From the NCBI GenBank assembly GCA_964573395.1, contig CAZNJI010000005.1:7759-71758 (forward strand): a stretch of DNA of 64,000 nt, read 5' to 3'. The number at the start of each line of letters is the position of its first letter. Position 1 is the stretch's first letter. Of the stretch, positions 34,339 through 64,000 are shown piece after piece. The stretch is from an uncultured Candidatus Saccharibacteria bacterium (GTDB lineage Bacteria; Patescibacteriota; Minisyncoccia; Phycocordibacterales; UBA9973). The notes under the pieces are model-generated. The model saw only the letters and a program-made list of their open reading frames with translations. It searched no databases and was not told where the DNA came from. The translations under genes were made by a program, and so were the position numbers.

Positions 34339-34611
34339 AACGGTATCACAAACGATGCTATAATCATCGGGCATTTTTAAAATGCTTAGTTCTTTATGTA
34401 TTAATATTCCCCTGTAGCTTGCGGTGGAGTGAGGCTTGGGATGGGACCCAAGCTGCAAGACCTTTTGAGATAGAATTGAGCATGCGAAAATTATATCCAA
34501 AAGGTGTACAGCTCCTGTAAGGAGGTCGCCGAGGCGACTGCCTACCGCGTAACAATTTATTTTGGCAATCATTAATGATGGTTACCAAATAGAACGTTAC
34601 AAAAAAAATAT

Positions 34612-34976
34612 TCCCCTGTAGCTCAGCGGTAGAGCAGTCGCCTGTAACATGAACAATGTTCAAATAGCAGCTTCCCGATCGAAAGACGGGTCGAAAAACG
34701 AAGTGAATTGACTGGAAATCCTGATCACACAGGATAATCAGCAGCCAAGCCCAGCCGTGAATCCAATAAGTTATTGAACTCACAACTGGGAAGGTTCAGA
34801 GACTATCTCGAAAGAGAGTACTCTCAGCCGTATTTTGTTTATAAAAAAATACGGCTAGGCGGAAGCGCTTCGCACCTTCCCTTTTTATTAAGAATGGTGA
34901 TGATATAGTCCATACCCGCAGTAATGCGAGAATATATGTAAGCGATTGGTCGTAGGTTCGAATCCTACCGGGGGAG
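34612..34976 (+). tRNA. tRNA-Asn(GUU) interrupted in the anticodon loop (between positions 35/36) by a ~293-nt intron-like insert (34646-34938)
   Basis: 5' exon: tcccctg-ta-gctc-agcggta-gagc-a-gtcgc-cugu. 3' exon: uaa-gcgat-tggtc-gtagg-ttcgaat-cctac-cggggga-g. Acceptor 7/7 paired (with U6-G67), and the G73 discriminator is typical of tRNA-Asn. The insert ends in G and contains CAGCCAAG and AGACUA P7-like motifs. Confidence 0.55.
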
Positions 34977-36641
34977 CAAAGTCGAACAAACATCCCTGAA
35001 AATAGGATTTTGTTCCGAAACATCAATGATATTTTCAGGTTCGAACTGTATGTTCTTCTGTTTTGCCGCACTTAGTCCATCAATTAGAGTTTGAAACTCT
35101 TCTGCGTTGGTAATACTCATTTTTTCTTCATTCCAGATAAGGTTCGATTTAAACTTCTTCAAAACAACTCGTTTAGCCTTGGTATCATCTGAAGAAAGAA
35201 CATCCACGAAAGATTGTGTTAAATCAACAATTTCACGCATTCGTATTGACCAATCCTGTCTTTGTATTGATTGCGTTTTAAGCTCAGCAACTTCCCTATC
35301 AATTTTTTCAGCATCTTTTTTGTAATCATCGGGAGAAGTTACACCATCGTTTAAATACTGTCGTGCTCGGTCCTTGCGTGCAAGAAGCTGTTCAAGGTGA
35401 CTTTTTCTTCCTTGTTCAATCGTTACAATGTGCTCTACTTCTCTATCTTTCATTTCTTGAATATTTCTCCTGCACCAATCCGCTAAAGCTGGCGATAGTT
35501 GAAGATTTTCCTTAACGTAGCTGATTAAGTAGTCAGTAATACAAGATTCTTCAATATATCGAGCTTTGAGTTTTTTCTTTCTACGACTGACGTTGTAATA
35601 GTAATGGTATGAGAGGTATTTAGGGCTCTTAATTTCTGCAAGTGTTTTGTTGCATTTAGGGCAACAGTCCTTGTTCTGGTAGGAGAATTTATATTTGCAC
35701 TCGCAAATTAATTGAAGCTTTATATCTGGACCAATAAATTCACCGTAAGGAGATTTAATAAAACCACTATAAGGAGTTAAGTGCTCTTTTGTCTTTGGAA
35801 CACTTCTATCTCCAAGCATTCTGCGTACCTTGTAATGTTCTGCCTCGGTTATCATTCGAGGTAATTCTGGAGCAAGCTCATATCGTTCTCCTCCATAGTA
35901 AAAGAAGCCTGCAAAAATAGGGTCTTTCAAAATTTCATAAATACGTGAGTAAGTAATAAATTTCCCACCAATTCTTTTACTCTTCCGTGTTGTGAACTTA
36001 ACTTCATTTACTGCCCACTCATAGAGCTGTGTTCCGGAATAGCTTCCGGAAAGAAACATACTGAACATCTGTTTGATAATGTTAAACCGATCCTCATCTA
36101 CTAACCACTTCCTATTTCCCTTTTCTTCGCTTCGATCATTTTTAAACCCAAGAGCCGCAAGACCATGTGGGTATCCCATGCTAGCTTTCTTTGCCTGCCC
36201 TCGTTTTACGTTTACCGAAAGATCTCGACTAAACTGATTAGCTGAACCAAATTCAACTGACATAAGGAGTGCATTTTCGTTTGGAAGATATACTTTAGTA
36301 GGAGTAATAATTGCTTTGATGATTCCTTTTTGAAGTAAGTCTATTATGAGCCCTCCATCAACCATGTTTCGAGCAAGACGGTCCAATTTCCAGCAGATAA
36401 TTGCATTGATTTTTCCCTCATGTAGGTCTTTAATCATTCGCTTATAAATCTCACGCTCTCCGGCAAAATGTGCCGATTTTGCTTCTTCATACAATTCTGA
36501 CTTCACTATTTCCCAATATGAAATTAGACGCTCTGCCTCTTCCTTTTGGGCTGGAATTGAAAGGACCTGTTTTTCTTCAGATTCTTGCGATTTCCTACAA
36601 TAAATTCCTGGAATTAAATCTTTTATTTGGTTCCTGTCCAT
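34965..36641 (-). CDS. Large serine recombinase (site-specific integrase)
   Basis: Resolvase catalytic domain (IYCRKSQESEEKQ..S, KLDRLARN), a recombinase domain, and a Zn-ribbon CECKYK..CCPKC. The last 4 codons overlap the tRNA-Asn T-arm/acceptor. Confidence 0.9.
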   Translation of the reverse strand: MDRNQIKDLIPGIYCRKSQESEEKQVLSIPAQKEEAERLISYWEIVKSELYEEAKSAHFAGEREIYKRMIKDLHEGKINAIICWKLDRLARNMVDGGLIIDLLQKGIIKAIITPTKVYLPNENALLMSVEFGSANQFSRDLSVNVKRGQAKKASMGYPHGLAALGFKNDRSEEKGNRKWLVDEDRFNIIKQMFSMFLSGSYSGTQLYEWAVNEVKFTTRKSKRIGGKFITYSRIYEILKDPIFAGFFYYGGERYELAPELPRMITEAEHYKVRRMLGDRSVPKTKEHLTPYSGFIKSPYGEFIGPDIKLQLICECKYKFSYQNKDCCPKCNKTLAEIKSPKYLSYHYYYNVSRRKKKLKARYIEESCITDYLISYVKENLQLSPALADWCRRNIQEMKDREVEHIVTIEQGRKSHLEQLLARKDRARQYLNDGVTSPDDYKKDAEKIDREVAELKTQSIQRQDWSIRMREIVDLTQSFVDVLSSDDTKAKRVVLKKFKSNLIWNEEKMSITNAEEFQTLIDGLSAAKQKNIQFEPENIIDVSEQNPIFRDVCSTLLPR

Positions 36642-37924: not shown

Positions 37925-38303
37925 AGTTTAATTTTTTGTTTAAAAACAATAAAACATTCTTTTAATAATTAAATGGGTTTTTGTATATAAAACGCAAAAA
38001 GCCCAACACGAAGGTGGTAGCTTGCGCTACCCATACCAGTTTCCCGGTATGACCAGTGACGGCAGACCCTTCGATGTTGGGTTCTTTGCACGTCACTGGT
38101 TTTTCTTCACCATGCCAGCCCTAGGGGCTGGTTTAGGCTACTTCGCTAAGTATTACACGAAAATATGAAGTTTTCTACAGATAGGTTTAAAAACCCAAAA
38201 ACCCAAGAAATCCATATTTTCTTAGGTAGATAAGAGTCCGGTTTTTAAACCGGAAAACCCGATATTTTGGTTTAAAAACCAAAAAAACAATAACCCTTAA
38301 AAA

Positions 38304-44521: not shown

Positions 44522-44562
44522 CAAAACAAGACCTCACGCAATAACTATGTGTGAGGTTTTTT

Positions 44563-44669
44563 AGTTCTGAAGTATCATCAAAGGAAATACCTCAAAAATC
44601 TTAGAAACTTCTAAATCTCTTTTAATTGCAACCCAGTTAAGAGTTCTGAACTCGTCCACGAGAGGGAGC
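44563..44669 (+). repeat. Intergenic repeat R2
   Basis: Same architecture as R1. Confidence 0.7.
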
Positions 44670-44783
44670 CATTTTTTGAAGCTTATTTCGTAACAGTTAA
44701 TTTTGATACCCAAATAGGGTTCAGAACTTTACATAAGAAAAGCCCGCCATTACTGACGAGCTTTTTTTGTTTTTAATCGTTGA

Positions 44784-45140: not shown

Positions 45141-45263
45141 AACGATAATTGTTTATTTTGAAGAACAGTGAGGTTACGACCCTCGATTACGTTGCTGAAT
45201 AACTCAGTCTTGTTTACATTGTAGCATACTACAAGATAAATGTCAATATATAGCCAATTTACT

Positions 45264-45370
45264 AGTTCTGAAGTGCCATCATCGGAAACATCTCAAAAAT
45301 CTTAGAAAACTCCAATTCCCTTTTGATAGCAACCCAGTTAAGGGTTCTGAACTCGTCCACTAAAGGGAGC
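45264..45370 (+). repeat. Intergenic repeat R3
   Basis: Same architecture as R1. Followed by a TTGACT-17-TATTAT promoter at 45377-45405. Confidence 0.7.
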
Positions 45371-45526
45371 TAATACTTGACTTTTCTATATTTTTATGCT
45401 ATTATATATTTGTAATAGTACTTTGAGATACTTGGTTATTTAATGTTGATTTTGTTGGGTTTTCTGTGTTCCCTGCTTGGGATTATAGACAACTCAATAA
45501 TTTCTAACAATTAAATAAACAAAAAA

Positions 45527-46000
45527 ATGAACAGTTATCAAAAAAGTGAAAGGGTTACAAAAATCCTTTCTATATTTTCAATTGTGTCGTTTGTTATCGC
45601 CATTATTTCGTTTGTAATTTATGCCTTCGTTGGACGAAAAACATTCGACACTATCGCCGTGACTGGTTTAACAGCGTTCATGCTGCCCATTCTGGTGCTG
45701 CAAGTCGCCATGCCAGCAAACTTCCACATCTTTGGAACAAAAGGTATAGGGATCCCCTGGTCGCTATTTTTCTTCCTGTTTATATTCCCGTTCGCTGACC
45801 TGTGGTTCTTCTCTGGGTTAAGCACTTTATTCAACATTATTCCTGATTATCACTCTGTGATGAACGGATCAATGAAAGAACTGGTGCGTAATCAAGCCAT
45901 GACAGAAGCATGGACATACATCGGGAGTATATATGTGGGACTAATTAGTATCGGCCTGCTGTTAAGAAAAAAACAAAAAGAAAAAATTGTTCTGGGATAA
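45527..46000 (+). CDS. Hypothetical membrane protein (cassette gene)
   Basis: 157 aa with 4 predicted TM. Terminator at 46021-46051. Confidence 0.45.
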   Translation: MNSYQKSERVTKILSIFSIVSFVIAIISFVIYAFVGRKTFDTIAVTGLTAFMLPILVLQVAMPANFHIFGTKGIGIPWSLFFFLFIFPFADLWFFSGLSTLFNIIPDYHSVMNGSMKELVRNQAMTEAWTYIGSIYVGLISIGLLLRKKQKEKIVLG

Positions 46001-48131: not shown

Positions 48132-50051
48132 ATGAAAATGAAACTAGCATTACCGCTGTCTGGCATACTTGCATTTCTGCTGTTATTCATCGGAATACCG
48201 AACGCAGACGCCTATATGCACACAGCGACATTAAAAACCGGGTCAAGAGGCTCGCAAGTTGTCGAGCTGCAAAAGACCCTGAACGCCAACGGATACACCG
48301 TATCGTTCTCTGGGGCCGGCGCTCCGGGAATGGAAACTTCCTATTTCGGCATAAAAACAAAAACTGCCGTTATGTCATTCCAGTCAGCTCAAGGGCTTGT
48401 CTCGGATGGCATTGTGGGGCCGATAACTGGAACACGCTTAGCGGCACTGGGTACACCAGTGGGGCCTATCCCAAATCTTCCTCTGGGATGTAGCTCGATT
48501 ATCGGGTACAGCCCGCTCACCGGAGTGAAATGTGATAGCACAACCACTACTCCTCCAGTAACCCAGCCTGATCTTTCAGGCAATAACGGAGTGATTCACC
48601 AGTTCAGCGAACTTTCTCCGTACAGCAACGAGGAAGTAGCTGAAGGGCAAAAAGATATTCGCGTAGCTGGATTTGAAATTGAAGCTTCACGTGATGGAGA
48701 CATAGAAATTCAATCAGTGCGCCTGAGCTTCGACCCGGCGGGAAATACCGGCTCGAATCGCCTCGATCGGTATATCGACTCAGTATCTCTGTGGATGGAC
48801 GACACACGAATCGCAACTGCTCGGGTAGATGATTTCTCACGAGGCAGCGGCAACGTGTACTCTCGAACAATGTCTATCAATAAAGCTATTGTTCGATCCG
48901 GCCAGGAACAGAAATTTTATATTACCGTTGATGCAGTACGAAACCTTGACTCTGCAGATATTAGCGGAGACTCATGGACAGTTGATGTTGAGAGTGTTCG
49001 CTACAAAGACGGTCTCGGTGTAGTAACCACCGACAACAGAACGGGCGATATGAACAGCATGGATGTGCCGATTAACTTCGTCACCTTCAGTTCTGCGGCA
49101 GACACGAACCTTAAAATCAGCCTTGCTTCAGATAACCCCGAAGAAGGATTGGTCATTGTCAGAGACAATAGAACGACAGATGGTGTACTTCTATTGAAAG
49201 GTGCGCTCAAACTCGAAGGTACTTCAGATGTAACCATAGAAGAGCTACCGGTAACCTTTACGGTTTCTGGAACTGCTGCAAATGTTGACGCAGTGCTAAA
49301 CTCAGCAACTCTTATTATTGGCAACGAAGAATACACCGAACGGGTTTCTACCACCGGAACAACCGCAACCGTAATCTTCGATAGACTGGATTATGAAATG
49401 CGTGCCGGAAGAACGGTTGATTTCAGCATTGTTGCTGAAATGAACAGACTTCGACCAGGCATATTCGAAGAGGGAGATACTATCAAGGCTGAAATATCTT
49501 CAGCAAACAGAGACCTCATCGAAGTTGAAAATGAGCGCGGAGATGATCTTTCTAATGCAGATGAAAAATCAGGTACCGCTATCGGAAAAACGATGGAGTT
49601 GCGCAAAAGCGGTATCATGCTCTCTCTTGTGTCAACGAATACCTCATCAGTTTCTGGCGATTCTGCAAACGATGACATCGGAACGTTCAGAATTAAGTTC
49701 AAAGTAAAAGCGCTCGGTGAAGATGCATACATTTCTTCCCTGGGCACTACTGACGGACTTACCTATCTCGTCGATAAAGCAGGAGAAATCGTAGCCTCAG
49801 GAACAACGGCAATAATCACTAACAATACCAGTTCTTCTCTCACTCCAGCGGGTAACTACCGCATTAATGAAGGAGAAGAAGAAACGGTAGAAGTTATGAT
49901 TATGATCCAGCTTCCAGATGCAGGCACAGCCGGACTCTACCGAGGAAGTTTAACGGGGTTAAAATGGGATACTGACGACGATGCTACTCCCGACAATAAC
50001 TACACGTTCAATCTTGATCAATTCAGAACTCCTTATATGATATTAAACTAA
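48132..50051 (+). CDS. Secreted protein with an N-terminal peptidoglycan-binding (PG_binding_1-like) domain and a large beta-rich C-terminal region
   Basis: Signal peptide, then GSRGSQVVELQKTLNANGY..FGIKTKTAVMSFQSAQGLVSDGIVGPITGTRL. Confidence 0.55.
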   Translation: MKMKLALPLSGILAFLLLFIGIPNADAYMHTATLKTGSRGSQVVELQKTLNANGYTVSFSGAGAPGMETSYFGIKTKTAVMSFQSAQGLVSDGIVGPITGTRLAALGTPVGPIPNLPLGCSSIIGYSPLTGVKCDSTTTTPPVTQPDLSGNNGVIHQFSELSPYSNEEVAEGQKDIRVAGFEIEASRDGDIEIQSVRLSFDPAGNTGSNRLDRYIDSVSLWMDDTRIATARVDDFSRGSGNVYSRTMSINKAIVRSGQEQKFYITVDAVRNLDSADISGDSWTVDVESVRYKDGLGVVTTDNRTGDMNSMDVPINFVTFSSAADTNLKISLASDNPEEGLVIVRDNRTTDGVLLLKGALKLEGTSDVTIEELPVTFTVSGTAANVDAVLNSATLIIGNEEYTERVSTTGTTATVIFDRLDYEMRAGRTVDFSIVAEMNRLRPGIFEEGDTIKAEISSANRDLIEVENERGDDLSNADEKSGTAIGKTMELRKSGIMLSLVSTNTSSVSGDSANDDIGTFRIKFKVKALGEDAYISSLGTTDGLTYLVDKAGEIVASGTTAIITNNTSSSLTPAGNYRINEGEEETVEVMIMIQLPDAGTAGLYRGSLTGLKWDTDDDATPDNNYTFNLDQFRTPYMILN

Positions 50052-51926: not shown

Positions 51927-52039
51927 ATACCGCATTCTAGCAGAAAAATGGGAACTGCAATCTCATAAGAACAGTAGACAGGATTGAAAAGCTATATTTG
52001 AGTAATATAAAGCCTATGGGCATCGTCTATACTACACGT

Positions 52040-52996
52040 ATGAAAACAGGAATTGTCATTACCATTCTTTTGGCCCTTGGGGCGCTCATTCTTGCCACCT
52101 CTGTGCTCAAACCGGATTCGGCTAAAAACGTTACCGATTTTACGAGCTGTAGAGAAGCAGGATACCCCATCCTCGAGTCGTTCCCCGAGCAATGCACGAC
52201 GCCGGACGGCAGAACGTTTACAAATACCGACCAAGTCCAGCCAGTGCCTGGAGTAACCGGAAAAGAAGATTTAATCGTGGTGAACGTACCGGTTCCAAGC
52301 CAGCCGATTACCAGCGGATTCATTGCATCCGGGCAGGCGCGCGGCGGATGGTACTTTGAGGGAAGCTTCCCGCTGACCCTCGTTGACGCTGACGGAAAAA
52401 CCCTTGCACAAACCTACGCAACGGCGCAGGGCGAATGGATGACACAGGAATTCGTTCCGTTCATTTCCCAACCGATTACCTTTGCACAGCCGGCAACCGC
52501 TACTGGCACGCTCATTTTCCATAAAGACAACGCTTCAGGCTTGCCTGAGCATGACGACGAACTGCGAGTGCCGGTGCAATTTGGCGCGACAAACCAGCGC
52601 TCCGTTCAGCTGTATTTCTACGATGACTCGAAAGACCTCGACGCGCAAGGCAACGTACTCTGCAGCAGTAAGGGGCTCGTGGCAGTTTCGCGCAGCATTC
52701 CAAGTTCGGCTACTCCGATTCAAGACGCCGTGAAAGCGCTCCTCGGGCAAGGACCGACTGCGGCTGAAAGAACCCAGGGGCTCGAGAGTGAGTTTCCGCT
52801 TTCAGGGGTAACGCTCCAAAGCGCGAACCTCACCCCGGCAGGAACTCTGACGCTCGCCTTTGCGGATCCGCAGAATAGAACCAGCGGCGGCAGCTGCCGG
52901 GTGGGCATTCTGCGGGCGCAAATTGAAGCGACCGCCAAGCAGTTTCCCGAAGTAAAAACGGTGGTTTTGGCTCCGGCAGCCATTTTTCAGCCTTAA
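52040..52996 (+). CDS. Hypothetical secreted/anchored protein (GerMN/Gmad2-like)
   Basis: N-terminal TM. Weak resemblance to the GerMN domain in VKALLGQGPT..LESEFP. Confidence 0.4.
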   Translation: MKTGIVITILLALGALILATSVLKPDSAKNVTDFTSCREAGYPILESFPEQCTTPDGRTFTNTDQVQPVPGVTGKEDLIVVNVPVPSQPITSGFIASGQARGGWYFEGSFPLTLVDADGKTLAQTYATAQGEWMTQEFVPFISQPITFAQPATATGTLIFHKDNASGLPEHDDELRVPVQFGATNQRSVQLYFYDDSKDLDAQGNVLCSSKGLVAVSRSIPSSATPIQDAVKALLGQGPTAAERTQGLESEFPLSGVTLQSANLTPAGTLTLAFADPQNRTSGGSCRVGILRAQIEATAKQFPEVKTVVLAPAAIFQP

Positions 52997-53118: not shown

Positions 53119-53418
53119 ATGAATAAAAAATTATACGTTGGAGGAATTTCGTTCCAAGCGTCTGAATCCGATCTGAACGATCTTTTTGCAACGATTGCGC
53201 AGCCGGTTTCTGCTAAGATCATCAGCGATCGAGAAACAGGCCGGTCTCGCGGATTCGGATTCGTTGAGATGCCTTCTGAAGAAGATGCTCAAAAAGCAAT
53301 TGATCAGCTCAATGGAACCGAACAATGGGGGCGAACCATTTCAGTAAGCATTGCGCAGGAAAAGCGCGATAATGGCGGATTCGGCGGCGACCGAAAGCCT
53401 TTCCAAAAGCGTTTCTAG
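53119..53418 (+). CDS. RNA-binding protein (RRM domain)
   Basis: RNP2 KLYVGGISF, RNP1 RGFGFVEM, and a Gly/Arg tail. Confidence 0.85.
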   Translation: MNKKLYVGGISFQASESDLNDLFATIAQPVSAKIISDRETGRSRGFGFVEMPSEEDAQKAIDQLNGTEQWGRTISVSIAQEKRDNGGFGGDRKPFQKRF

Positions 53419-53437: not shown

Positions 53438-53468
53438 AAAAAAATCCCTGATTTCAGGGATTTTTTGT
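53438..53468. terminator. Bidirectional rho-independent terminator
   Basis: aaaaaatccctgatttcagggatttttt. Confidence 0.75.
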
Positions 53469-54548
53469 TTCCGAATCATGCCGTGATTCAATCAGCTTAT
53501 GCTCAAGCTCTTTTATTTCTTTGAGCTCCGCTTCCAGGATTTCGCTGGCGTGTTCGAGTTTTTCAATTTTCTCGGCTACTTCTTTTTTCGAATCATTCCG
53601 CCCGATCCGAAAGAGCGCGCGGTAGCGCTGGCGCAGCAGAACGTAGAGCGTTACTGCAATAATAAGCGCTCCTAAAATGATGGCGCCGATAATCAGCCCC
53701 GTTTCCCCTTCTCCAAACCAGCGCACGCCCAGCTTCGTCTGCTCCGGATCGATGTTAATCCACTTTTCAGTTACCGTATTCCGATCAACGGTGGCAACCT
53801 GCGAATATCCCTTTTCCAAAATGGATTGCAGAATCGTTTTGTCGGAAGTCATGCCGAACGAGAGTTGGTAATAAAATCCGGTAGAGCCCGCAATGCGCAC
53901 GGCCGAGAGCGCTTGTCGCGACAGAAAATAAGAAAGCGAGGCAACATCAAGGATTGCGGCATCAACGTCTCCCAAGGCAAGCTGCTGCAGCGCAATTTCG
54001 TCATCGGTAACCTGGCTGAGCACCACCCGAGGGTAGTTTTCACGAATAAAATAGGCCGCCCCCGAATTGCTCGTTACCGCCACTTGTTTTCCCGAGAGCT
54101 CCGAGAGTTCAACGTCCTTCTTTCCCGAATCGCGCCGAACGACAATGACTGCCGGAACTGAGATATAGGGCTGGGTAACAATGAGCTCTTCCTGTTCGGC
54201 GTTGGCACTATCGACGCGGGCAATAACGTCCCCGCGGCCTTCGAGAATATCGTTTCGTATCTGCGCCCGAGAGCGAGCAGGCAAATAAACAATCTTTGCT
54301 CCAATCTGTTCGGCAATCAATTCAAGGTAATCGATCGAGAGTCCGGCGGGCGGGCTGTTCGGGTTCGTTACGTAGACGAACGGCGGAGCGTTTTTCTCAG
54401 GATAGACGACAATCGTATTATTGCGAGAACGAAGCCAGAGCCGTTCTTCTTTCGAGAGAATGTCCACCTGAGCAAAGGCAGCCGACCATCCAGTAGCTAA
54501 AAAGAAAACGAGGGATAGCGCCCACACTCGAGTCTTTTGCTTTTTCAT
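53454..54548 (-). CDS. Periplasmic substrate-binding-domain protein (SBP family 3-like) with a C-terminal TM and coiled coil
   Basis: Signal peptide, an SBP_bac_3-like fold, TM IIGAIILGALIIAVTLYVLL, and a C-terminal EKLEHASEILEAELKEIKELEHKL. Confidence 0.5.
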   Translation of the reverse strand: MKKQKTRVWALSLVFFLATGWSAAFAQVDILSKEERLWLRSRNNTIVVYPEKNAPPFVYVTNPNSPPAGLSIDYLELIAEQIGAKIVYLPARSRAQIRNDILEGRGDVIARVDSANAEQEELIVTQPYISVPAVIVVRRDSGKKDVELSELSGKQVAVTSNSGAAYFIRENYPRVVLSQVTDDEIALQQLALGDVDAAILDVASLSYFLSRQALSAVRIAGSTGFYYQLSFGMTSDKTILQSILEKGYSQVATVDRNTVTEKWINIDPEQTKLGVRWFGEGETGLIIGAIILGALIIAVTLYVLLRQRYRALFRIGRNDSKKEVAEKIEKLEHASEILEAELKEIKELEHKLIESRHDSETKNP

Positions 54549-54590: not shown

Positions 54591-55697
54591 TTACTCTCGA
54601 AGATTCTTAATTGCTTCGTCGAGTGCGCGATCGTTTCGCAACAGATCGTGGCCTTGTACGTCGAGTTTTTCTTCTTCAAGTCCGAATTGCTTTTTCAATA
54701 CGCGCATTTTTCTGAATGAGTACCACGGAATGAAGTAAATGACGACGATGAGCCCGACAACCGGAATCAGAAGTGCCAACACGTTAATGAGGATTACCAA
54801 AAACCTGACAATCGGACTGTCGGAAACGAGCAGGCGCGCACCAAGCCCCGGGCGTTCGGTGTTGGTTGATTGGTCAACCAAGAATGGCGTTGCGCTGTAC
54901 ACGCCGGCAAGCAGATTGCGTTCGGTCGTATATTCGAAATTTCCTTCAGCATCGTTTTCGACATACGCGTTTGGCGGGCTGATTCGTTTCGTCTGAAGCA
55001 GTTGAATGAATCGTTCGCCGAGCGATTTCTGATCGGCCCCCTCGAATACTAGCTTTGTCATTGCGTTCGGTTCCCCTTTTCCGCGAACGTACATGGCTTG
55101 TCCAGTTCCGATCTCAGGAGAATATTCGGTAATAACCGGCAAAGCTGGCAATTTTCCCGGCACAACTGCAACCGGTAACGTGGGCTGCACTGGTATCGTA
55201 ATGGAATCTTTCTCTGGCGTTACTATGGCGACAATCGCATCTTGCCCCGCTGAAGCTAAGAGATTTGTCCCTTTGCCGTCGTTTGCAAGAATTGATCCGT
55301 CGACAAAGTGGATTGCAGCCTTACCGGTCGATTTTGCCTCAAAGGTAACCTTGAAAGCCGTGCCGGCCGACCCTTGGTACCCCGGATTGAGAATAACACC
55401 TTCAAACGGTATGCGGTTTGATAATCCTTCCGGTTCTTTGGTCCAGAAATTAATAATGCTATCACTTTGGCTCACCGCAACAAGATTGAGAAGATTCGTA
55501 GGAAAGAGGAGCGTGCCGGAAATCGCATTGATGGCCTGATCAACCGAGCGAACCTGTACCGTTACCGTAAACTGAGTGCCGGCCGATACCGAAGCAGGCG
55601 CACCGGTAATCGAAAAAGATGCGGTTTGGGCGAACGCAACACTGGGGATAGTAAGGAAGAAGAGCAGTATTAAAATTCTTACGACGCGTCTCATCAT
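54591..55697 (-). CDS. Signal-peptide protein with a cohesin-like domain and a C-terminal TM anchor
   Basis: QTASFSITGAPASVSAGTQFTVTVQV..AISGTLLFPTNLLNLV. Paralogous to the adjacent gene. Confidence 0.45.
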   Translation of the reverse strand: MMRRVVRILILLFFLTIPSVAFAQTASFSITGAPASVSAGTQFTVTVQVRSVDQAINAISGTLLFPTNLLNLVAVSQSDSIINFWTKEPEGLSNRIPFEGVILNPGYQGSAGTAFKVTFEAKSTGKAAIHFVDGSILANDGKGTNLLASAGQDAIVAIVTPEKDSITIPVQPTLPVAVVPGKLPALPVITEYSPEIGTGQAMYVRGKGEPNAMTKLVFEGADQKSLGERFIQLLQTKRISPPNAYVENDAEGNFEYTTERNLLAGVYSATPFLVDQSTNTERPGLGARLLVSDSPIVRFLVILINVLALLIPVVGLIVVIYFIPWYSFRKMRVLKKQFGLEEEKLDVQGHDLLRNDRALDEAIKNLRE

Positions 55698-55700
55698 ACG

Positions 55701-56567
55701 CTACCGTTTTATTATACGAATTAGTACCGAAAGAAGCACGAGGAATAATAGCAATGACACCACAATCGGCCATGAGTGGATAGCGCCAGGAATTTCCGCC
55801 GTACCAACGGCTGCATTGCCGGCGTAATCAACCGCTCGTACCGTTACTCTATAGCCAAACACCGATCGCGGCAATTGGTACGGGCTCTGCGCTTCTTGCC
55901 ACTCGTTATTGCCAATTTTAACTTGGTACGATGCAACGCCTGAATCTGCATCAGTGGTCATAAATGAAAGGAGCGGCGGCGTACCTCCTTTGCGATTTCC
56001 AGGAATATAGAGCGGCATAAAAAGCTCCGGCGGGTTCGTATCTACTTCATAGGCCGATGCCACTTCACCTCCTGAAACTGCTTGCAGCGTTATCCCCTTG
56101 CCGGTAGCAGTAAGCGCTGTTCCTTGGCCATCGTGCGCGTAGAGCACTGAATCTGCAATGGTAAGCGAAAGCGGGCCAGGGGTTTTGGCCGTAAAGAACA
56201 GTGTTACCAGTTTTAAGGATTTCCTCGTTCCTGCTTGCTGATCATACACTTTATCTATCCCCCCTGGAATCACTCCAGCAAAGCTGACGGTGTTGCCACT
56301 TACTTTCGGCGGTTCAACCCACATGCGAATCGCTGCCCCCGCTTCTTGATACCCCGAGAACGAAACCTGGTCGGGATGAAACGATACTGAAACCGACACC
56401 GAATTAACCGGCACGTCGCCCGCTTCCACTATCACGGCAACTGGTATGCGAGCACCAACACTCAAGACATTCGCTGGAGACTCAAGCGAAACGGTTGCAG
56501 CAACAAGCGAAGCTGCCTGCGAGCAGAGCACCATGATGCTGATAAAAAGTAATGTAGCGTATTTCAT
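55701..56567 (-). CDS. Signal-peptide protein with a cohesin-like domain and a C-terminal TM anchor (paralog)
   Basis: ATVSLESPANVLSVGARIPVAVIVEAG..SVSVSFHPDQVSF, and a C-terminal TM. Confidence 0.45.
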   Translation of the reverse strand: MKYATLLFISIMVLCSQAASLVAATVSLESPANVLSVGARIPVAVIVEAGDVPVNSVSVSVSFHPDQVSFSGYQEAGAAIRMWVEPPKVSGNTVSFAGVIPGGIDKVYDQQAGTRKSLKLVTLFFTAKTPGPLSLTIADSVLYAHDGQGTALTATGKGITLQAVSGGEVASAYEVDTNPPELFMPLYIPGNRKGGTPPLLSFMTTDADSGVASYQVKIGNNEWQEAQSPYQLPRSVFGYRVTVRAVDYAGNAAVGTAEIPGAIHSWPIVVSLLLFLVLLSVLIRIIKR

Positions 56568-56569
56568 AT

Positions 56570-57841
56570 TTATCCAGTCCAATAAAACGCAAGGATGCTA
56601 AAGTCTACTAAGTTCACAATACCATCTTTATTCACATCAACGGATTCTGGCGGATTCGGCTTTAAGTACCAGTATGCCGCGATCGAAAAATCTTTGATAT
56701 CGACTCTTTTGTCTCCGTTGTAATCACCCGAAATTTGGCCTGGGATTCTTCGCTCTACCGTTCGGTTTCCCATAATGAGTTCCATCAAAATGCTCTGGCG
56801 AGGATCATCCTGATAGCGTACCTGTATGCCGTATTTCCCGTTAGGATAGCTAACTGTCTCAAGCACGTACTGGTACTTTCCGTCGGCGGAAGACTGTACA
56901 CCAACACTCTGCACTGCTGGCCCGCCTATTCCCAATACCAATTCTCGGTTTGGAATTGCTGATCCGTTGATGATAACTTCTCCCGGCTTCCGAATTTCGA
57001 TTTTGTCGGTAAAGATACTCGGCGGGAAAATAATTCCGGTAATGCGGGTAACGTGCCCATTATGAATAACCAACGGGTAGTTAATCAGAAGCGATCGGAT
57101 ACCGTCGGTGTCTTCGGCAAAGAGCGTGTAAATTGCCGTCTGATCGTAGCTTTCAGGAATAGCGATTGAAAAAGCGGCAGCGGCATCAGCAAGTGTTTCT
57201 CCGTACGGAACGGAATTTTTTAACACTACCACTTTTGCATTCGGATACGCATACCCCGAAAACTGCACGCCGGAAACGATGGCCGCGCCACCCCCGCCCC
57301 CGCCGCTTGCAGGAGGTGTTGCGCCGGAAGGAGTGAGCGATATTTCATTTGAAGTTGCAATGGCATTACCGAATGCATCAAGCGTTCGAACAACGAAATA
57401 ATAAGCTGTATTGTTCGTCAAAGCGTTTTGCAACGAGCTCGTTACGTTTCCGACGTTCGTAAAACTGTACGATCCGCTGGTGGTACCAACCCCAACTTCG
57501 TATCCACTGACCGAAAAACCAAGTCCGGAAGTTGCCGCATTCCATGAAAGATTCACGAGCCCGTCACCAGCAACTCCTGCAAGCGTTACGTCGGTGACGA
57601 AAGGGAAATACAAGAAGCCGAACCGTCCCGTAAATGAGGCCGAATCGTTAGTACCGGTAAAGAGCAGCTCTCCGCTTGAAAAAAGCTGGAATGCGCTTGA
57701 TGCCGAATAGCCCGAACTGTTTCCAATGACCGGATCGCGGACGATAAAGCTAGAGCTCGTAAAGTCTGCGGCCTGCATCTTCCCTATTCCCATAAAACAA
57801 CAGAAGACGCACATGACCAAGAAATACAGGTGCGTCTTCAT
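56570..57841 (-). CDS. Secreted protein with FN3-like region and a C-terminal dockerin-type repeat pair
   Basis: C-terminal DYNGDKRVDIKDFSIAAYWY....VDVNKDGIVNLVDFSILAFYWTG is two Ca-binding dockerin-like segments. Confidence 0.5.
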   Translation of the reverse strand: MKTHLYFLVMCVFCCFMGIGKMQAADFTSSSFIVRDPVIGNSSGYSASSAFQLFSSGELLFTGTNDSASFTGRFGFLYFPFVTDVTLAGVAGDGLVNLSWNAATSGLGFSVSGYEVGVGTTSGSYSFTNVGNVTSSLQNALTNNTAYYFVVRTLDAFGNAIATSNEISLTPSGATPPASGGGGGGAAIVSGVQFSGYAYPNAKVVVLKNSVPYGETLADAAAAFSIAIPESYDQTAIYTLFAEDTDGIRSLLINYPLVIHNGHVTRITGIIFPPSIFTDKIEIRKPGEVIINGSAIPNRELVLGIGGPAVQSVGVQSSADGKYQYVLETVSYPNGKYGIQVRYQDDPRQSILMELIMGNRTVERRIPGQISGDYNGDKRVDIKDFSIAAYWYLKPNPPESVDVNKDGIVNLVDFSILAFYWTG

Positions 57842-57873
57842 ACGTTGCTTTGGGGATACCAAAAGCCTACATG

Positions 57874-58269
57874 CTAGTTAGCTGACGTAGTTGAGGTTCC
57901 CGATGTCTGAGCACCGATATTGATTGGAGCGACCGTGATAATTTTTTTCGCCACAGGATCGTACAGAATTGCCTTCTTGGCATTCGTGTAAATCAGCACC
58001 TTATCTCCCTGTTTTGCGCCAGAGAAGAACGCTTGCGTCTTTAACTGTTCTGGGTCAGAAACGGTAGCAATGGTTGGAACTTCGTCAGTTGGAACCACAA
58101 TGAGTTTTCCAACTTCGCTCGCAAGTTCCTGGGCCTCTGCCTGAGCGATTTTCTGCGGATCAGCCTGCGCTACGTTAAATTGCCGGTAGAAATACACGGT
58201 TGAAGCCGCCAGAGCGACGGTAAGCACAACGAGTAATGGGAAAACGAATCGCGGAAGTGTTTTTGGCAT
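57874..58269 (-). CDS. Hypothetical N-terminally anchored protein
   Basis: 131-aa ORF with an N-terminal TM. Confidence 0.4.
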   Translation of the reverse strand: MPKTLPRFVFPLLVVLTVALAASTVYFYRQFNVAQADPQKIAQAEAQELASEVGKLIVVPTDEVPTIATVSDPEQLKTQAFFSGAKQGDKVLIYTNAKKAILYDPVAKKIITVAPINIGAQTSGTSTTSAN

Positions 58270-58399: not shown

Positions 58400-59338
58400 T
58401 TGGTGAAATTACTCAAAAATCCTTTACTGACGGCACTAACGGTAAGCGTTTTATTGAACGTTTTTTTTACGATAAAAACCATCCTGCAAGAAAATGAAGC
58501 TAAACAAAGCTCCCGTTACGAATACCTTTCAAAGAGAATCTTTGCTGAAAACCAGAATGACATTCTTATTAACTTTACTCCCCTACGCGAAGCATTAAGA
58601 GCTTATGTCGGAAAACAGCCGCATCCAATAGGAGTTTACTTTGAATATTTGCCGGCCGGAACATCCATCGGAGTAAACGATTCGCTTGAAACGAAAATTG
58701 CCAGCCTCATTAAAATTCCGGTCGTTATGGCGGCATACAAAGCGATCGAAGAAAAGAAAATAACGCTCGATCAAGTTATCACCGTCGGTGAAGATGACAT
58801 CGATCCTACGTTCGGCGCACTATGGGAAAAAGGCCCTGGCACTACGCTTACCGTAAAGGAAACAATCGATCTTGCGTTAAAAGAATCAGATAATACGGCA
58901 ACTCGGGCGCTTACCGACGCTTTGCCTGAATTTTCAATCGAGCGAGTGTTCAATAGTCTTGATATTCCTAAAAATAAAGAAGAAAACTATATTTTGATAT
59001 CTCCGAAAAATTACACTTCCATTTTGCGAAGCTTGTATCTGAGTTCGTATTTAGAACAGGAAGATTCAGATGCAATACTAGAAACGCTTACTCAAACGAA
59101 GTACAACGACAAACTGCCTGCAGGAGTCGAAGAAAAGGTACCGGTCGCTCATAAAATTGGAACCTATAACATCGATGACCGCCAAGAATCTGTCTATAGC
59201 GACTGCGGCATTGTGTATGTCCCAAACCGGCCCTACAGCTTATGCATTATGATGCATGGATATGCCGAAGAAGAAGTTCGCCAGCATATGCAACTCATTT
59301 CAAATATGGTGTACCAGTACATAGTGAAAGTTAATTAA
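58400..59338 (+). CDS. Serine hydrolase related to class A beta-lactamases
   Basis: SxxK (ASLIK), SDN (KESDNTA) and a KxG-like HKIGT element, after an N-terminal TM. Confidence 0.5.
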   Translation: MVKLLKNPLLTALTVSVLLNVFFTIKTILQENEAKQSSRYEYLSKRIFAENQNDILINFTPLREALRAYVGKQPHPIGVYFEYLPAGTSIGVNDSLETKIASLIKIPVVMAAYKAIEEKKITLDQVITVGEDDIDPTFGALWEKGPGTTLTVKETIDLALKESDNTATRALTDALPEFSIERVFNSLDIPKNKEENYILISPKNYTSILRSLYLSSYLEQEDSDAILETLTQTKYNDKLPAGVEEKVPVAHKIGTYNIDDRQESVYSDCGIVYVPNRPYSLCIMMHGYAEEEVRQHMQLISNMVYQYIVKVN

Positions 59339-62300
59339 ACTGTTGGTTCCGGTGTAGATTTCTGTACTGGTTCCTCTACCGGTGCCGGGTCAGGAGTTGA
59401 TTCAGGAACGGTTGGTTCTGGGGTTGGCGTAGTTTCTGCTGGTGGTGGAGCCGGCTCAGGTGTTGGTGATGGTTGCGGCTTTGATTCTTCTATAGGAGTA
59501 ACCTCAGGTGTAGTTTCAGGTTCAGGTTGAGGTTGAGGAACTACCGGATCTTCTGCCGGTGCTGGATCAGGAGTTGGTTCTGGTGTAGTTGCTTCAGGAG
59601 CAGCAGGTTCTGGCGTTGGTGTTGGTTCTACTGGTGGCGGAGTTGGTTCAGGCGATGCTGATGGCTCTGGTTGTACTGCTTCTGGAGGAGCAATGTCTAA
59701 CCCTTCAAAGACGCTTTCGTACACAGCCGGGTCTTTACTTGCAAGCGCGGTCCATGAGAAGCGGATATCACGCACTGCAGGCTTATTCAAGAGAATCGTA
59801 AATCCTGTCTTGCTCTTATCAACAATTAAGAACTGGATTCCGGCATTAAAGAACGCTTCGGCTTCTGCATCGGTCATGTCATCAGCTGATTCGAATGAGA
59901 TGGAAGCATTCGTTGCCGGTTCAACCATGTACTCGTTCTCAAAGTCGATTCTGACGCGACGATCACCTTCTTTAATAAGTGCAAATCCGGCAGTGTCTTT
60001 ATTAAAGAGCGGAGGCAATGCGAACTCTACTGCCCCGCCAAAGGTAACAGCTTCATTGAAGACGGTTGCTCCACTGAAGAAGCTTAATCCGTTAAAGTCG
60101 GCCTGGCCGTTGAAGGCGCTCTCTCCTGAAACAGTTAATTTGCCTGCCGTAAGTTCAGCTATCGTAAAGGTTTCGTTCTCTCCAAAGAAGCTTTCAATAA
60201 GTGCGAGTCTTCCTGCGAGCCCTTCTTGAGCAGTCGCAAGTTCCGTAAGGTATGCCGCTCCGTCTACGCCGGCTTCCTGCAGCGCGCTAATTTGAGATGC
60301 AAGCGCATGTACCGCTGAAGCGGTCAGCGCAAGCGATTCCTGCCCTTCGCCAAGCACTGCCAAGCGGTTCGTAATGGTTTCAAGGCCGGTGATTTTACCT
60401 GCTTCAATTTCAGTTGCAGTAATCTTGCCAGCGAACGTTCCGTTGCCAAGCGCGTCGAAGGTAATAATCGGTTCAACCGTGGTACTCGTGGTGCCGTCCT
60501 CGGCGGTTATGGTAACTTCTTTGCCTATCGTAAATGGACTACCATCGGTAAGCACCAATCCTATTCCATCTTCTCCGGCAGGCCGTATCGTATTTACTTC
60601 GAGCGTATCGGTAATTACCTGCGGCGTAATGATTTCAAGCCCAGCAACAAGTCGGTCGGTAATAATTTCAGACATGTTTACTTCCGCTTCGTTTCCGTAA
60701 AGCTCTTTCTGGTTCACAAAATACTCCAATGCAGTTTTGCTAAGGTTTTGCTCGGTAAGCAATGCAGAGTCAGTTCCCGGAGGAGGGAGCAAGTCTTTTA
60801 AGTTTGTACCGTTATAGCTACCAGTTTTTACAAACATCAATACCGAGCCAACATCTTCACCGTCGTAAGAATCAAGCGCAACACCAATTACCGTGCTAGC
60901 TTTAGTCGCCTTCATTGCCACCCCAGGAATTGAAGAGCTGGTGAGTGCATCGCCAACATTAATTGCACCGTTTTCCGTACTTACCTTAACTGGTACGCGC
61001 CCAGAGAGAGCAACCATAACCGGCGTACCACCATCTGGTTGGATATCACCTATTACCAACCCCGGCTTGGTGGTAACAACGCCAAGCAAATTTTTGCCAT
61101 ACGCACCTTCTGATGCTTTTACTCCAGCAGAAAGTTGACTATCGGTCATTACTACTGTTCCCGGCGAGAGAGTGCCACCTTTGGCATAGTACACTTCGGC
61201 CAAATCGGCTCCAGAAACTTTATATGCTGTAACATAGCTTCCGGCATATACAGTTGTTGTACCACTTGTTGCAACCTGCCCTACCTGCAGTTGAACATCA
61301 CCAGCAGTACCGGCTGTTACTATTGTTCCTGTTACCCATATCGAATCAGTCGTAGTTGTTGCTATGGCCAAATTTCCTGAAGTTGTTCCACAAGCAACAT
61401 TTGCTACGGAAAGAGCTTCCTCCATGATATTAAAACTGATATCACAAGTAGAGCCTGTAGGGGCATCTATATCTCCTTTAAAATCTGCCGTTGAGTTTGA
61501 TGAAAACTGCAAGTTCATCTGGAATATCCATGTTTCGTTTGCCCCAACCGGAAAGCCCATATTGTCGGTTGTATCAGAATTATTATCAACATCCTCAGGT
61601 GTCGTAGAAGTAGTTGTAAAGTTTCCGTCGAGTACATTATGAAATGTTGCCCGATCCGATCCGCACTCCCATACTGAACCTGATTCATCCCACTTCAATA
61701 CTTGGCCGTCAGCACAGCCCTGCAACAGCCCAATACCGCCTGTGCCTGCTTCCATTCCCGATGCGCTAGAAGTTGCCCCCGACCCATCACTGCTGGTAAG
61801 ATCAACCGTCCAAACTGAACCAGATGAAGCAACGGTAACATCGCCCTTATCGCCATCGCTTACCCCACCACCACCGCCACAGGCCTGCCATTCCAAAAGC
61901 GCACCGCCACCGGTTTCTGAAGTTAAACAGTATTCATCAGTAGCCGTTCCCTGCGTGGTAAGGTCGCCCCGTTCAATGCCTGCATCAAGCACACTAAACT
62001 CGCTAGTTGAAATAAGCGTTCCGTTCACGTTGAACAAATTGGTAAACGTTCCGCCGGCATCGATGAACTGGATGGCGTTCGTAACCGCAGTATTCGTGTC
62101 TGAGTTATCAATCACCAAAAGCGATTCAGTTGTTCCGGATGATGCTGCGTTGTCGATATAGATGCCGTATTGGTTGCCCGACGACGTTGCATTCGTAAGT
62201 GTTAGTGTTGCCAATTCTTCAGCCGTGCTTCCTGTAAGAGAAAGCGTGCTATTAAGTGCCGCTTCGGTAAAGTTAATGTCATGCTCGTCGGCATCAACCA

Positions 62301-64000
62301 CCAGAATGGTCGCCCCTGCCTGCTGCATTTCTCCCAGGCGATAAATGTTGCTTGAATCATCAGCTTCAAACACCGTTCCAGCGCCGTTGTTAAAGCGAAT
62401 CGTTCCAATGTCATCATCTACTTCTATGTAGTTACTATTGTTTGCGTTGTTGAAATCTCCGAGCGCTCCTATACCTGAGATCGGATCGACTTTGAAAAGG
62501 CCTCCAGTATAGCTTCCACCATTTACCTGCAGTCGTCCGTCAAAAAGGCCGGCATAGTTTGCAGTCGTTGCTCCTGATGCCGTTGCATAGAGCGCGACAT
62601 TCGTTGCACTCGCTCCGGTATGAGTATTGGAAAGATATGCGCCGTAGGTGGTGTTTGCCCCCGTTACCGCGCCGGCAGTTGAAATGTTTAATGCCTTCTG
62701 GCTTGAAATGCCTGCCGTACCGGTAACTGAAAGATCGAGCAGTGTTCCCGATGAAAGCGTGCTTGAAGCAATTGAGAATGCGGTTGCAGTCGTAGCGTTT
62801 ACCGTCCACGCAGTTTCTTCGCCTGAATCAAAGGTAAGTGCCTGATCGCCCGTTGGGTTCGAGATGCCGTTCCATGTCGAGCCGCCACCGACTCCGCAGC
62901 CGGTACATGAATTAACGGTTAAGTCTCCGAGAATTACCAAGTCGCCGTCTTCATCGAGCGTTAAGAGTGCCGTATTCGATGCCTGGCTTCCTTTTGCCAC
63001 ACCGAACACTTGCTGATCAGCCGTTGGGGAAGCACCTACTAAGATTTCAAAGAGCGGATCAGTGGTTGCAGTTGCTGCAGTTTGCGTGGTAGTGAAGAGG
63101 AGTTGATTATCAACGCCTTCATCGTATTCGATTGCCCAGTTCGCATCGTTTCCGAAGACAAAGTTGGTGTCGTCCTGTACTTCCCACACCCCCGTAATGT
63201 TCTCTGCGTCTGAGTCGAAGATGAGGGCTTCGATGGTGTTTTCGCCTGTAGCATCCACTGCATCAAGGCCGTTAATCGTACCAGTACCAGTAAGGGTAAG
63301 CGTTGCAGTTGAGAGAATGGTCGGACTGAGCGTGCCAGTGGAAGCATCATAGAGGAGTCCGCCATCCGTCTTTGGAGCAAGTGATCCCGTAGCAGAGTCG
63401 AAGATGGCCACGAATGAGGTGGCATCAGTGCCGTCAACGACAGTGACCGTTGAAGCAAGAGTAGCAAGATCAACGGTGATGTTGTTTGGAATATCACCAT
63501 CAGTGAGAGAGGCACAGGTTAAGTTGCCATTCGCTGCAATGGTGGTGGCGAAGGTATTTGCGGCACAGTCAGTTGGGTTGGCAGCAAGAGCGGTGGCGGT
63601 GTCAGCGTTGCCGGTTAATCCACCGATGAAGCTGGTGGCAGTGAGTGCATTGGTGCTGGCGTTGTATGTCAGGCCGGCGTCGGTGGCTGGAGCGAGTGAG
63701 CCAGTGGCTGCGGTGCCGAGCGCGACAAAGGTGGTGGTGTCGCCTCCGGCGTCAGCGAAGGTGACGGTGCCCGCGTTGCCGGTGACGGAAGTCTGGTCGC
63801 CGGTGTTAGTGCCGGAGACAGTCGTGGTACCAGAGACGGTGAAGGATTGTCCTTGGATGGAAGTGAGGTTGGCTAGTGTATCAATGGCACTTTCAATGGT
63901 GGTCTCGGTGGTGGCATCAATGGCATCAAGACCGTTGAGTGTGCCAGTGCCGGTTAAGGTGAGCGTATCAGTTGAAAGGGCGATGGCACCAAACGTTGCT
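59335..64000 (-). CDS. Giant repetitive cell-surface protein with a Pro/Thr/Glu-rich C-terminal tail. N-terminus lies outside the window (frame open to window end; the track start is an internal GTG).
   Basis: More than 1550 aa in the window. Internal repeats ATGSLAP(K/A)TD(G/A)GL(L/T)Y(D/N)AST and LTLTGTG(T)(I/L)NGLDA(V/I)DAT. The C-terminal 250 aa is PEPTP/PAPxE repeats. Confidence 0.7.
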   Translation of the reverse strand, partial: ATFGAIALSTDTLTLTGTGTLNGLDAIDATTETTIESAIDTLANLTSIQGQSFTVSGTTTVSGTNTGDQTSVTGNAGTVTFADAGGDTTTFVALGTAATGSLAPATDAGLTYNASTNALTATSFIGGLTGNADTATALAANPTDCAANTFATTIAANGNLTCASLTDGDIPNNITVDLATLASTVTVVDGTDATSFVAIFDSATGSLAPKTDGGLLYDASTGTLSPTILSTATLTLTGTGTINGLDAVDATGENTIEALIFDSDAENITGVWEVQDDTNFVFGNDANWAIEYDEGVDNQLLFTTTQTAATATTDPLFEILVGASPTADQQVFGVAKGSQASNTALLTLDEDGDLVILGDLTVNSCTGCGVGGGSTWNGISNPTGDQALTFDSGEETAWTVNATTATAFSIASSTLSSGTLLDLSVTGTAGISSQKALNISTAGAVTGANTTYGAYLSNTHTGASATNVALYATASGATTANYAGLFDGRLQVNGGSYTGGLFKVDPISGIGALGDFNNANNSNYIEVDDDIGTIRFNNGAGTVFEADDSSNIYRLGEMQQAGATILVVDADEHDINFTEAALNSTLSLTGSTAEELATLTLTNATSSGNQYGIYIDNAASSGTTESLLVIDNSDTNTAVTNAIQFIDAGGTFTNLFNVNGTLISTSEFSVLDAGIERGDLTTQGTATDEYCLTSETGGGALLEWQACGGGGGVSDGDKGDVTVASSGSVWTVDLTSSDGSGATSSASGMEAGTGGIGLLQGCADGQVLKWDESGSVWECGSDRATFHNVLDGNFTTTSTTPEDVDNNSDTTDNMGFPVGANETWIFQMNLQFSSNSTADFKGDIDAPTGSTCDISFNIMEEALSVANVACGTTSGNLAIATTTTDSIWVTGTIVTAGTAGDVQLQVGQVATSGTTTVYAGSYVTAYKVSGADLAEVYYAKGGTLSPGTVVMTDSQLSAGVKASEGAYGKNLLGVVTTKPGLVIGDIQPDGGTPVMVALSGRVPVKVSTENGAINVGDALTSSSIPGVAMKATKASTVIGVALDSYDGEDVGSVLMFVKTGSYNGTNLKDLLPPPGTDSALLTEQNLSKTALEYFVNQKELYGNEAEVNMSEIITDRLVAGLEIITPQVITDTLEVNTIRPAGEDGIGLVLTDGSPFTIGKEVTITAEDGTTSTTVEPIITFDALGNGTFAGKITATEIEAGKITGLETITNRLAVLGEGQESLALTASAVHALASQISALQEAGVDGAAYLTELATAQEGLAGRLALIESFFGENETFTIAELTAGKLTVSGESAFNGQADFNGLSFFSGATVFNEAVTFGGAVEFALPPLFNKDTAGFALIKEGDRRVRIDFENEYMVEPATNASISFESADDMTDAEAEAFFNAGIQFLIVDKSKTGFTILLNKPAVRDIRFSWTALASKDPAVYESVFEGLDIAPPEAVQPEPSASPEPTPPPVEPTPTPEPAAPEATTPEPTPDPAPAEDPVVPQPQPEPETTPEVTPIEESKPQPSPTPEPAPPPAETTPTPEPTVPESTPDPAPVEEPVQKSTPEPTV

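Follow-up and report, generated by a model that had tools for sequence, protein, structure and literature searches.

A conserved operon of Patescibacteria encoding a dockerin-bearing stalk protein and two membrane-anchored cohesin-like proteins

Cohesin–dockerin pairs outside cellulosomes are already known. Single cohesins of this kind are found in modules of the Clostridium perfringens GH84/GH33 toxin complex (PDB entries 2w1n, 2vo8 and 2jh2) and in Archaeoglobus fulgidus (2xdh), and the C. perfringens modules reportedly link secreted enzymes together. In cellulosomes, anchoring scaffoldins such as SdbA, OlpB, Orf2p and ScaE present a surface-fixed cohesin, to which a secreted protein is bound through its C-terminal dockerin. 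Anchoring scaffoldins are attached by SLH domains or sortase, and their cargo is a multi-cohesin scaffoldin loaded with enzymes. In the WxL/WxLIP (DUF916-DUF3324) clusters of Firmicutes, which are organised as operons, secreted surface proteins are held non-covalently by a membrane-anchored protein with immunoglobulin-like (Ig-like) domains (PMC10599100). Here we describe a stretch of 64,000 nucleotides, referred to as the window, from an uncultured Candidatus Saccharibacteria bacterium (contig CAZNJI010000005.1 of assembly GCA_964573395.1, positions 7,759 to 71,758 of the forward strand). In this window a secreted protein of 430 amino acids (aa) that ends in a dockerin, Doc430, is encoded next to two membrane-anchored proteins with cohesin-like domains, Coh1 and Coh2.

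As in C. perfringens and A. fulgidus, the cohesins of the window are single and stand outside a cellulosome. The likeness extends to the position of the cohesin beside an FN3 or Ig domain, as in the cohesin-FN3 construct 2w1n, and to the dockerins, which in both systems carry two calcium-binding loops. In contrast to C. perfringens and A. fulgidus, the cohesins described here are located on single-pass membrane proteins, their client is one non-enzymatic stalk, and the genes form one operon that is conserved over a whole radiation. Capture of a C-terminal dockerin by a surface-fixed cohesin, akin to the anchoring scaffoldins, is what we propose for this locus as well; however, anchoring would rely on a membrane helix and its conserved cytoplasmic tail, and one stalk protein would be the cargo. 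The operon layout also resembles that of the WxL clusters, and most relatives of the locus include a WxLIP-like gene, which stays under every curated threshold. The window itself, however, is devoid of WxLIP-like genes, and WxL clusters have neither cohesin nor dockerin. No WxL motif was seen in two loci that were read by eye, which does not amount to a systematic test. The locus is unusual in its predicted membrane-helix anchor, in having one client without enzymatic function, in its conservation throughout a radiation of reduced genomes and in its linkage to a giant surface protein. The operon was not found in the literature on cohesins and dockerins in Patescibacteria, Parcubacteria or the candidate phyla radiation, where the preprint that surfaced deals with giant proteins of Omnitrophota.

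A dockerin stalk protein beside two cohesin-like membrane proteins

According to the list of open reading frames (ORFs), five tightly spaced genes follow one another on the minus strand of the window, encoding a 131-aa protein, Doc430, Coh2, Coh1 and a 364-aa protein, in this order. The ORFs of the trio Doc430, Coh2 and Coh1, which the original prediction had singled out, were all confirmed on this strand at their predicted positions (Table 1). The four genes from that of the 131-aa protein to that of Coh1, plus the gene of the 364-aa protein, most likely represent an operon for a non-catalytic cell-surface complex. A scan for promoters and terminators returned no higher counts than shuffled sequence.

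The C-terminus of Doc430 reads ...GDYNGDKRVDIKDFSIAAYWY...VDVNKDGIVNLVDFSILAFYWTG. This duplicated segment had been taken for the calcium-binding end of a dockerin, and the Pfam analysis agreed. Dockerin_1 (PF00404) matched residues 379-425 with 29.0 bits, compared to a gathering threshold of 22.9 bits (E = 1.2e-6), and scored 28.1 and 30.5 bits on the orthologues of two related loci, L003 and L079, respectively. The segment comprises two intact calcium-binding loops of 12 residues, DYNGDKRVDIKD and DVNKDGIVNLVD, with Asp or Asn at positions 1, 3, 5, 9 and 12. The first loop is followed by FSIAAYWY and the second by FSILAFYW, a helix pattern of the form FSIxA[FY][WY], and in the AlphaFold2 (AF2) model a helix does follow each loop (residues 389-397 and 418-426). 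The module furthermore aligns to the dockerin of PDB entry 2y3n_B (E = 0.005). Corresponding modules were collected from 65 related loci, which gave 66 sequences with that of the window. In all 66 the dockerin forms the end of the protein, and in 55 of them both loops fit the pattern, the other 11 failing at loop 2, where position 1 is not Asp. A cysteine pair (GDCN...PPxCVD), located at position 2 of loop 1 and two residues ahead of loop 2, is complete in 33 sequences and absent as a whole from 22, among them the window with Tyr and Ser at these sites; mixed cases were not observed. Such an all-or-none distribution is expected of a disulfide in an extracellular module and suggests that the pair may serve as an optional disulfide clamp. 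Judged by its sequence, the C-terminus of Doc430 is a type-I-like dockerin with intact loops, for which calcium dependence is predicted.

Ahead of the dockerin, Doc430 consists of a signal peptide, a conserved N-terminal peptide, an FN3 domain and two Ig-like domains. The AF2 model of the protein has an overall predicted local distance difference test (pLDDT) score of 83.7, which rises above 90 in the FN3 and Ig-like domains and is about 40 in the conserved peptide (approximately 55 residues) of this monomer model. Foldseek neighbours of Doc430 are FN3/Ig arrays, including fibronectin, titin, the phage T5 fibre, the SiiE adhesin and an S-layer protein, and no enzyme was present among the Foldseek matches or Pfam domains of the protein. 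The public gene call comprises 402 aa, beginning at an internal Met past the hydrophobic leader, and is without the signal peptide (region 57767-57862). With a TTG start (57862) or with Met8 (57841) the signal peptide is regained, as in aligned homologues.

Coh1 is composed of a signal peptide, a cohesin domain, an Ig-like domain, a membrane helix and a cytoplasmic helix, the C-terminal part forming a single long helix (residues 295-367). The membrane helix harbours the invariant motif N305...P312...Y321-I-P-W-Y-S327. In an AF2 model based on an alignment of 48 homologues (pLDDT 83), the N-terminal domain adopts the cohesin fold, a nine-stranded flattened beta-sandwich (jelly-roll). Structure comparison with the solved cohesins 2vo8, 5nrm_A, 2jh2, 2vn5_A, 1g1k_A, 3ul4_A and 2xdh gave target-normalised template modelling (TM) scores of 0.70-0.78 at root-mean-square deviations of about 3 Å (2.8-3.4 Å for the set without 2vn5_A), and the top structural match was 2w1n, the cohesin-FN3 pair of C. 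perfringens GH84C. Pfam Cohesin (PF00963) scored 19.6 bits on Coh1, compared to a gathering threshold of 24.1 bits (E = 1e-3), and was found at E ≤ 0.01 in 7 of 48 close homologues. The threshold was passed by proteins at the Coh1 position or by extra paralogues in loci L058 (36.1 bits), L045 (26.3), L061 (24.9), L052 (37.3) and L007 (30.7).

Coh2 is built from a signal peptide, a diverged cohesin-like domain, an Ig-like domain and a C-terminal membrane helix. Its N-terminal domain matched that of Coh1 in BLASTP (28% identity over 152 aa, E = 2e-9), and family-to-family comparison by HHalign aligned the two over 136 columns (99.9%, E = 3e-35), with the motifs INA/S-V, W..P, F.G and NDG.GT common to both domains. 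Pfam Cohesin did not match Coh2 and was found below threshold in 2 of 10 orthologues; an NCBIfam OmpL47-type domain reached 33.6 bits, under its cut-off. A homologue search with Coh2 yielded 12 proteins, a low number because the family diverges fast, and orthologues were drawn from syntenic loci instead, Coh2 being orthologous to the syntenic genes of loci L001 and L003. By homology to Coh1, the N-terminal domain of Coh2 is cohesin-like. Both proteins display a signal-peptide-like N-terminus and a C-terminal hydrophobic helix, as read from the sequence and, for Coh1, also from the model. Cohesin-like N-terminal domains in two secreted membrane proteins, as originally predicted, are thus borne out by fold in Coh1 and by homology in Coh2. 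In the proposed Pfam check, Dockerin_1 scored above its threshold, and Cohesin scored below its own on Coh1 and had no match on Coh2. What was found is a dockerin above threshold and a cohesin fold in Coh1, and not a lack of profile matches combined with unrelated folds.

Conservation of the operon and range of dockerin clients

Coh1 has hundreds of full-length homologues with about 50% identity, all of them from Patescibacteria/Paceibacterota assemblies, and databases already list several of them as "cohesin domain-containing protein". In a collection with one genome per species, a Coh1 relative occurs in at least 561 genomes; for Doc430, 729 homologues were found. ORFs were called in 79 loci and searched with the proteins of the window, and 67 of these loci extend at least 2.3 kb upstream of Coh1. 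A dockerin gene is located upstream of Coh1 in 64 of the 67 loci, with Coh2 in between in 62, and in two of the three exceptions to dockerin synteny the genes are slightly more distant. Since the synteny of the trio is kept in 62-64 of 67 loci from divergent Patescibacteria, chance is excluded. In many loci the stalk gene is directly preceded by an orthologue of the 131-aa gene, and at least 15 loci have, immediately ahead of the cluster, a gene homologous to that of the giant secreted protein encoded nearby. The gene of the 364-aa binding protein is found 3' of Coh1 in 31 of 69 loci, corresponding to the clade with a short Coh1 (approximately 370 aa). Conserved synteny with the giant secreted, the 131-aa membrane and the membrane-anchored binding protein is in line with the earlier description of the region as a surface-architecture locus. 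However, the giant protein had been placed downstream, whereas in the direction of transcription its gene is located upstream of the trio and runs off the window end.

In the majority of loci (55 of 64) the stalk is split over two genes; the window belongs to a fused minority type (9 of 64). In the split form, one gene codes for a signal peptide and the N-terminal peptide, as a rule with an FN3 domain, and its product closes with a C-terminal domain of about 180 aa. The other has a signal peptide of its own and contributes the two Ig-like domains and the dockerin. The two are separated by one or two genes for secreted paralogues with this C-terminal domain and by a gene whose product of about 340 aa bears a membrane helix at its C-terminus. 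The shared domain has ...TGTF or ...GNF as its last residues, and such extra genes occur in L003:1414-4565, L017:3166-6436 and about 50 other loci. The protein of about 340 aa is weakly WxLIP-like, Pfam WxLIP_PGBD being found below threshold in 8 of 23 cases and the PDB structure of EfmWxLIP1 with E = 0.12. A six-frame translation of the window contained no homologue of these intervening genes, neither of the WxLIP-like type nor of the secreted paralogues. The existence of the fused form speaks for a joint assembly in which both the N-terminal module and the dockerin stalk take part. On average, pairs of dockerin sequences share 61% identity, compared to 44% for Coh1 domains and 31% for Coh2 domains.

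Local profiles detected exactly one dockerin (local hidden Markov model, 99.9 bits) and two cohesins in the window. An exhaustive library search with the dockerin (66 residues) resulted in 331 representatives at E ≤ 1e-10. Among the best 150 of these, 121 have one dockerin copy, placed at the very C-terminal end of the protein, and their lengths fall into 58 proteins of 260-379 aa (split form), 28 of 380-520 aa (fused form), 34 fragments and one longer protein. The remaining 29 are multi-repeat proteins of another kind or fit no clean class. A variant of the dockerin protein with 1473 aa contains only structural repeats (CarboxypepD_reg, SdrD_B and fn3) and no enzyme domain. Hence, dockerins of this type are in essence confined to a single non-enzymatic FN3/Ig stalk family, and the anchor most likely has a single client rather than a set of enzymes. 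The non-cellulolytic appearance of the genome, remarked on in the original prediction, holds in that the dockerin protein has FN3 and Ig domains only, its dockerin type belongs to one family, and no further dockerin or cohesin was detected in the window.

A putative membrane anchor and alternative explanations

We consider it probable that the trio forms a dedicated plug-and-socket anchor, which holds a surface stalk on the membrane. Doc430 would be exported by Sec. Its FN3 domain and two Ig-like domains would form a rod, with the conserved peptide, which probably depends on a partner, at the outer N-terminal end. Coh1 and Coh2 would be single-pass proteins with the N-terminus outside, each holding one cohesin on an Ig-like spacer over the membrane. 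The dockerin is predicted to insert into the cohesin of Coh1, and possibly into that of Coh2, in a calcium-dependent manner; Coh1 is more conserved than Coh2 and therefore the more likely constant partner. The stalk would so be tethered non-covalently to the cytoplasmic membrane, its tip projecting through or above the wall, where it could make contact with another cell or with the giant surface protein encoded nearby. Such a joint would be small, with a plug of 55 and a socket of 140 residues, and would be a clear case of a cohesin–dockerin pair used as a structural joint and not for enzyme display. Patescibacteria are organisms with very small genomes and a life in attachment to other cells, and little has been learned so far of the proteins that make up their surface. 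The trio beside a giant surface protein is a concrete, testable candidate for a device that fixes a surface fibre to the membrane.

Several points weigh against this anchor. Coh1 of the window stays under the Pfam gathering score and Coh2 is without a match, and the Coh1-family profile meets solved cohesins by sequence weakly (E = 0.24). Cohesin-like beta-sandwiches can have other ligands, and two cohesins face a single dockerin. Furthermore, the near-invariant membrane helix and tail of Coh1 and the presence of a sensor-like partner suggest more than passive anchoring.

A wider proposal, which we put forward tentatively and with some doubt, is that the trio constitutes the membrane anchor of an undescribed Patescibacteria-wide surface organelle, made up of the giant protein, the 131-aa protein, the stalk, the two cohesin proteins and, in one clade, the Venus-flytrap protein (the 364-aa binding protein). 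In that case the cohesin–dockerin joint would replace anchoring by sortase, SLH or WxL and hold a host-attachment or envelope fibre of these episymbionts, and the invariant membrane helix and the cytoplasmic helices could signal load or contact inward.

An unlikely alternative to the plug-and-socket anchor is a surface complex without cohesin–dockerin pairing. Here, the calcium-binding pair would stabilise the C-terminus of the stalk or bind, for example, a wall polymer, and the beta-sandwiches would bind the N-terminal peptide, the giant protein or a glycan. The sub-threshold Pfam scores of the window's cohesin domains are consistent with this idea, as are the clusters of most relatives, to which a WxLIP/DUF916-like membrane protein belongs, along with secreted proteins that have a C-terminal domain in common. 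For the WxLIP family, beta-strand insertion rather than cohesin–dockerin contacts has been proposed (PMC10599100), and the conserved N-terminal peptide of Doc430, modelled with low confidence, resembles a strand in need of a partner. However, dockerin and cohesins are adjacent in approximately 95% of the loci, for which pairing is the simplest account. In addition, no part of the trio is more conserved than the dockerin helices, through whose face dockerins contact cohesins in known complexes.

It is more improbable still that the locus encodes a transmembrane sensing device, in which the Venus-flytrap protein and Coh1 would sense a ligand or contact and signal across the membrane, with stalk and dockerin as the input lever. 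The solved relatives of the binding protein do point in this direction, the sensor domains of BvgS (1.7e-29) and EvgS (1.8e-17) ranking ahead of transporter binding proteins (approximately 1e-7), and the neighbourhood of its gene contains neither a kinase nor a transporter gene (ABC permease or ATPase). The nearly invariant membrane helix and tail of Coh1 and a response-regulator gene after the cluster in locus L003 would also be compatible with signalling. However, a kinase, cyclase or other output domain is absent, no response regulator adjoins the cluster in the window, and the binding protein, with its gene 3' of Coh1 in less than half of the loci, is not part of the universal core. Finally, a minimal cellulosome-like enzyme display for polysaccharide breakdown, brought to mind by module families that are best known from cellulosomes, is so improbable that we reject it, as each anchor protein bears a single cohesin, Doc430 and its neighbours are free of glycoside hydrolase, esterase and carbohydrate-binding modules, a second dockerin is absent from the window and the dockerin type is confined to the non-enzymatic stalk family.

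Neighbouring genes and other features of the window

The coordinates of the cluster and of further features are listed in Table 1. Searches of family databases with the 131-aa protein gave no matches. The 364-aa protein combines a C-terminal membrane helix with a cytoplasmic coiled coil. The giant gene leaves the window, since its frame is without a stop codon up to position 64000; the protein has at least 1555 aa with the N-terminus beyond the window, and the listed ORF of 1358 aa is a partial view. Pfam had no match to it. Full-length relatives comprise 1300-3000 aa. At their N-terminus they show a signal peptide and a GVPxIIxYQGRL motif, and at their C-terminus a conserved domain followed by a Pro/Thr-rich tail, without a membrane anchor. 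Homologues of the beta-lactamase-like gene are found in an equivalent place in loci L039, L071 and L074, but there on the strand of the cluster.

Table 1. Coordinates of the cluster, its protein domains and other features within the window
Feature	Position	Strand	Basis
Giant secreted surface protein, Pro/Thr-rich C-terminal tail, conserved cluster neighbour	59335..64000	-	ORF
Class-A beta-lactamase-like gene, between giant gene and cluster	58400..59338	+	Pfam Beta-lactamase2, 151.7 bits
131-aa protein, N-terminal membrane helix, first gene of conserved cluster	57874..58269	-	ORF call
Doc430, 430-aa secreted stalk protein	56570..57862	-	ORF, Pfam, AF2, Foldseek
Doc430, N-terminal conserved peptide, aa 33-88, consensus TSSxFxVxDPV...SxSF...GFLYFP	57599..57766	-	Alignment columns
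Doc430, FN3 domain, aa 94-176	57335..57583	-	AF2; aligns to chitinase A1 FN3, PDB 1k85, E 7e-4
Doc430, two Ig-like domains, aa 197-265 (Big_6-like, weak Pfam) and aa 271-365	56768..57274	-	Pfam, AF2, Foldseek
Doc430, dockerin module, aa 377-430	56573..56734	-	Pfam, AF2, loop pattern
Coh2, 293 aa	55701..56582	-	ORF, BLASTP and HHalign to Coh1
Coh2, diverged cohesin-like domain, aa 27-172	56067..56504	-	
Coh2, Ig-like domain, approximately aa 185-265		-	
Coh2, membrane helix, aa 271-291	55710..55772	-	
Coh1, 368 aa	54591..55697	-	ORF, AF2 model, structure comparison
Coh1, cohesin domain, aa 24-160	55218..55628	-	
Coh1, Ig-like domain, aa 186-292	54822..55142	-	
Coh1, membrane helix, aa 298-327	54717..54806	-	
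Coh1, cytoplasmic helix	54594..54716	-	
SBP_bac_3 (Venus-flytrap type) protein, 364 aa, last gene of cluster	53454..54548	-	Pfam, 50.9 bits
99-aa protein, RRM-type RNA-binding look	53119..53418	+	Read by eye
Gmad2 and Germane (GerMN) protein	51998..52996	+	
639-aa PG_binding_1 protein	48132..50051	+	
LOOT RNA (RF03000)	38016..38139	-	Rfam, 84 bits (gathering 46.4)
Large serine recombinase gene	34965..36641	-	Resolvase and Recombinase
Group I intron	34560..34931	+	Rfam, 86.7 bits

Near the cluster, on the plus strand, the window encodes a small protein that by eye resembles RRM-type RNA-binding proteins, and two envelope-related proteins, one with PG_binding_1 and one with Gmad2 and Germane domains. 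At a greater distance, a group I intron and the gene of a large serine recombinase lie directly side by side at one edge of an island of low GC (positions 36000-46000 approximately, GC fraction 0.31-0.37 compared to about 0.49). A tRNA-like 3' end (GGTTCGAATCC) was found at about 34950-34980, and ARAGORN, with introns allowed, called an intron-containing tRNA. This arrangement resembles that of a mobile element inserted at a tRNA gene with an intron. The genes of the island include HNH_5, DUF3800 and a polysaccharide deacetylase, and a LOOT RNA lies within it.

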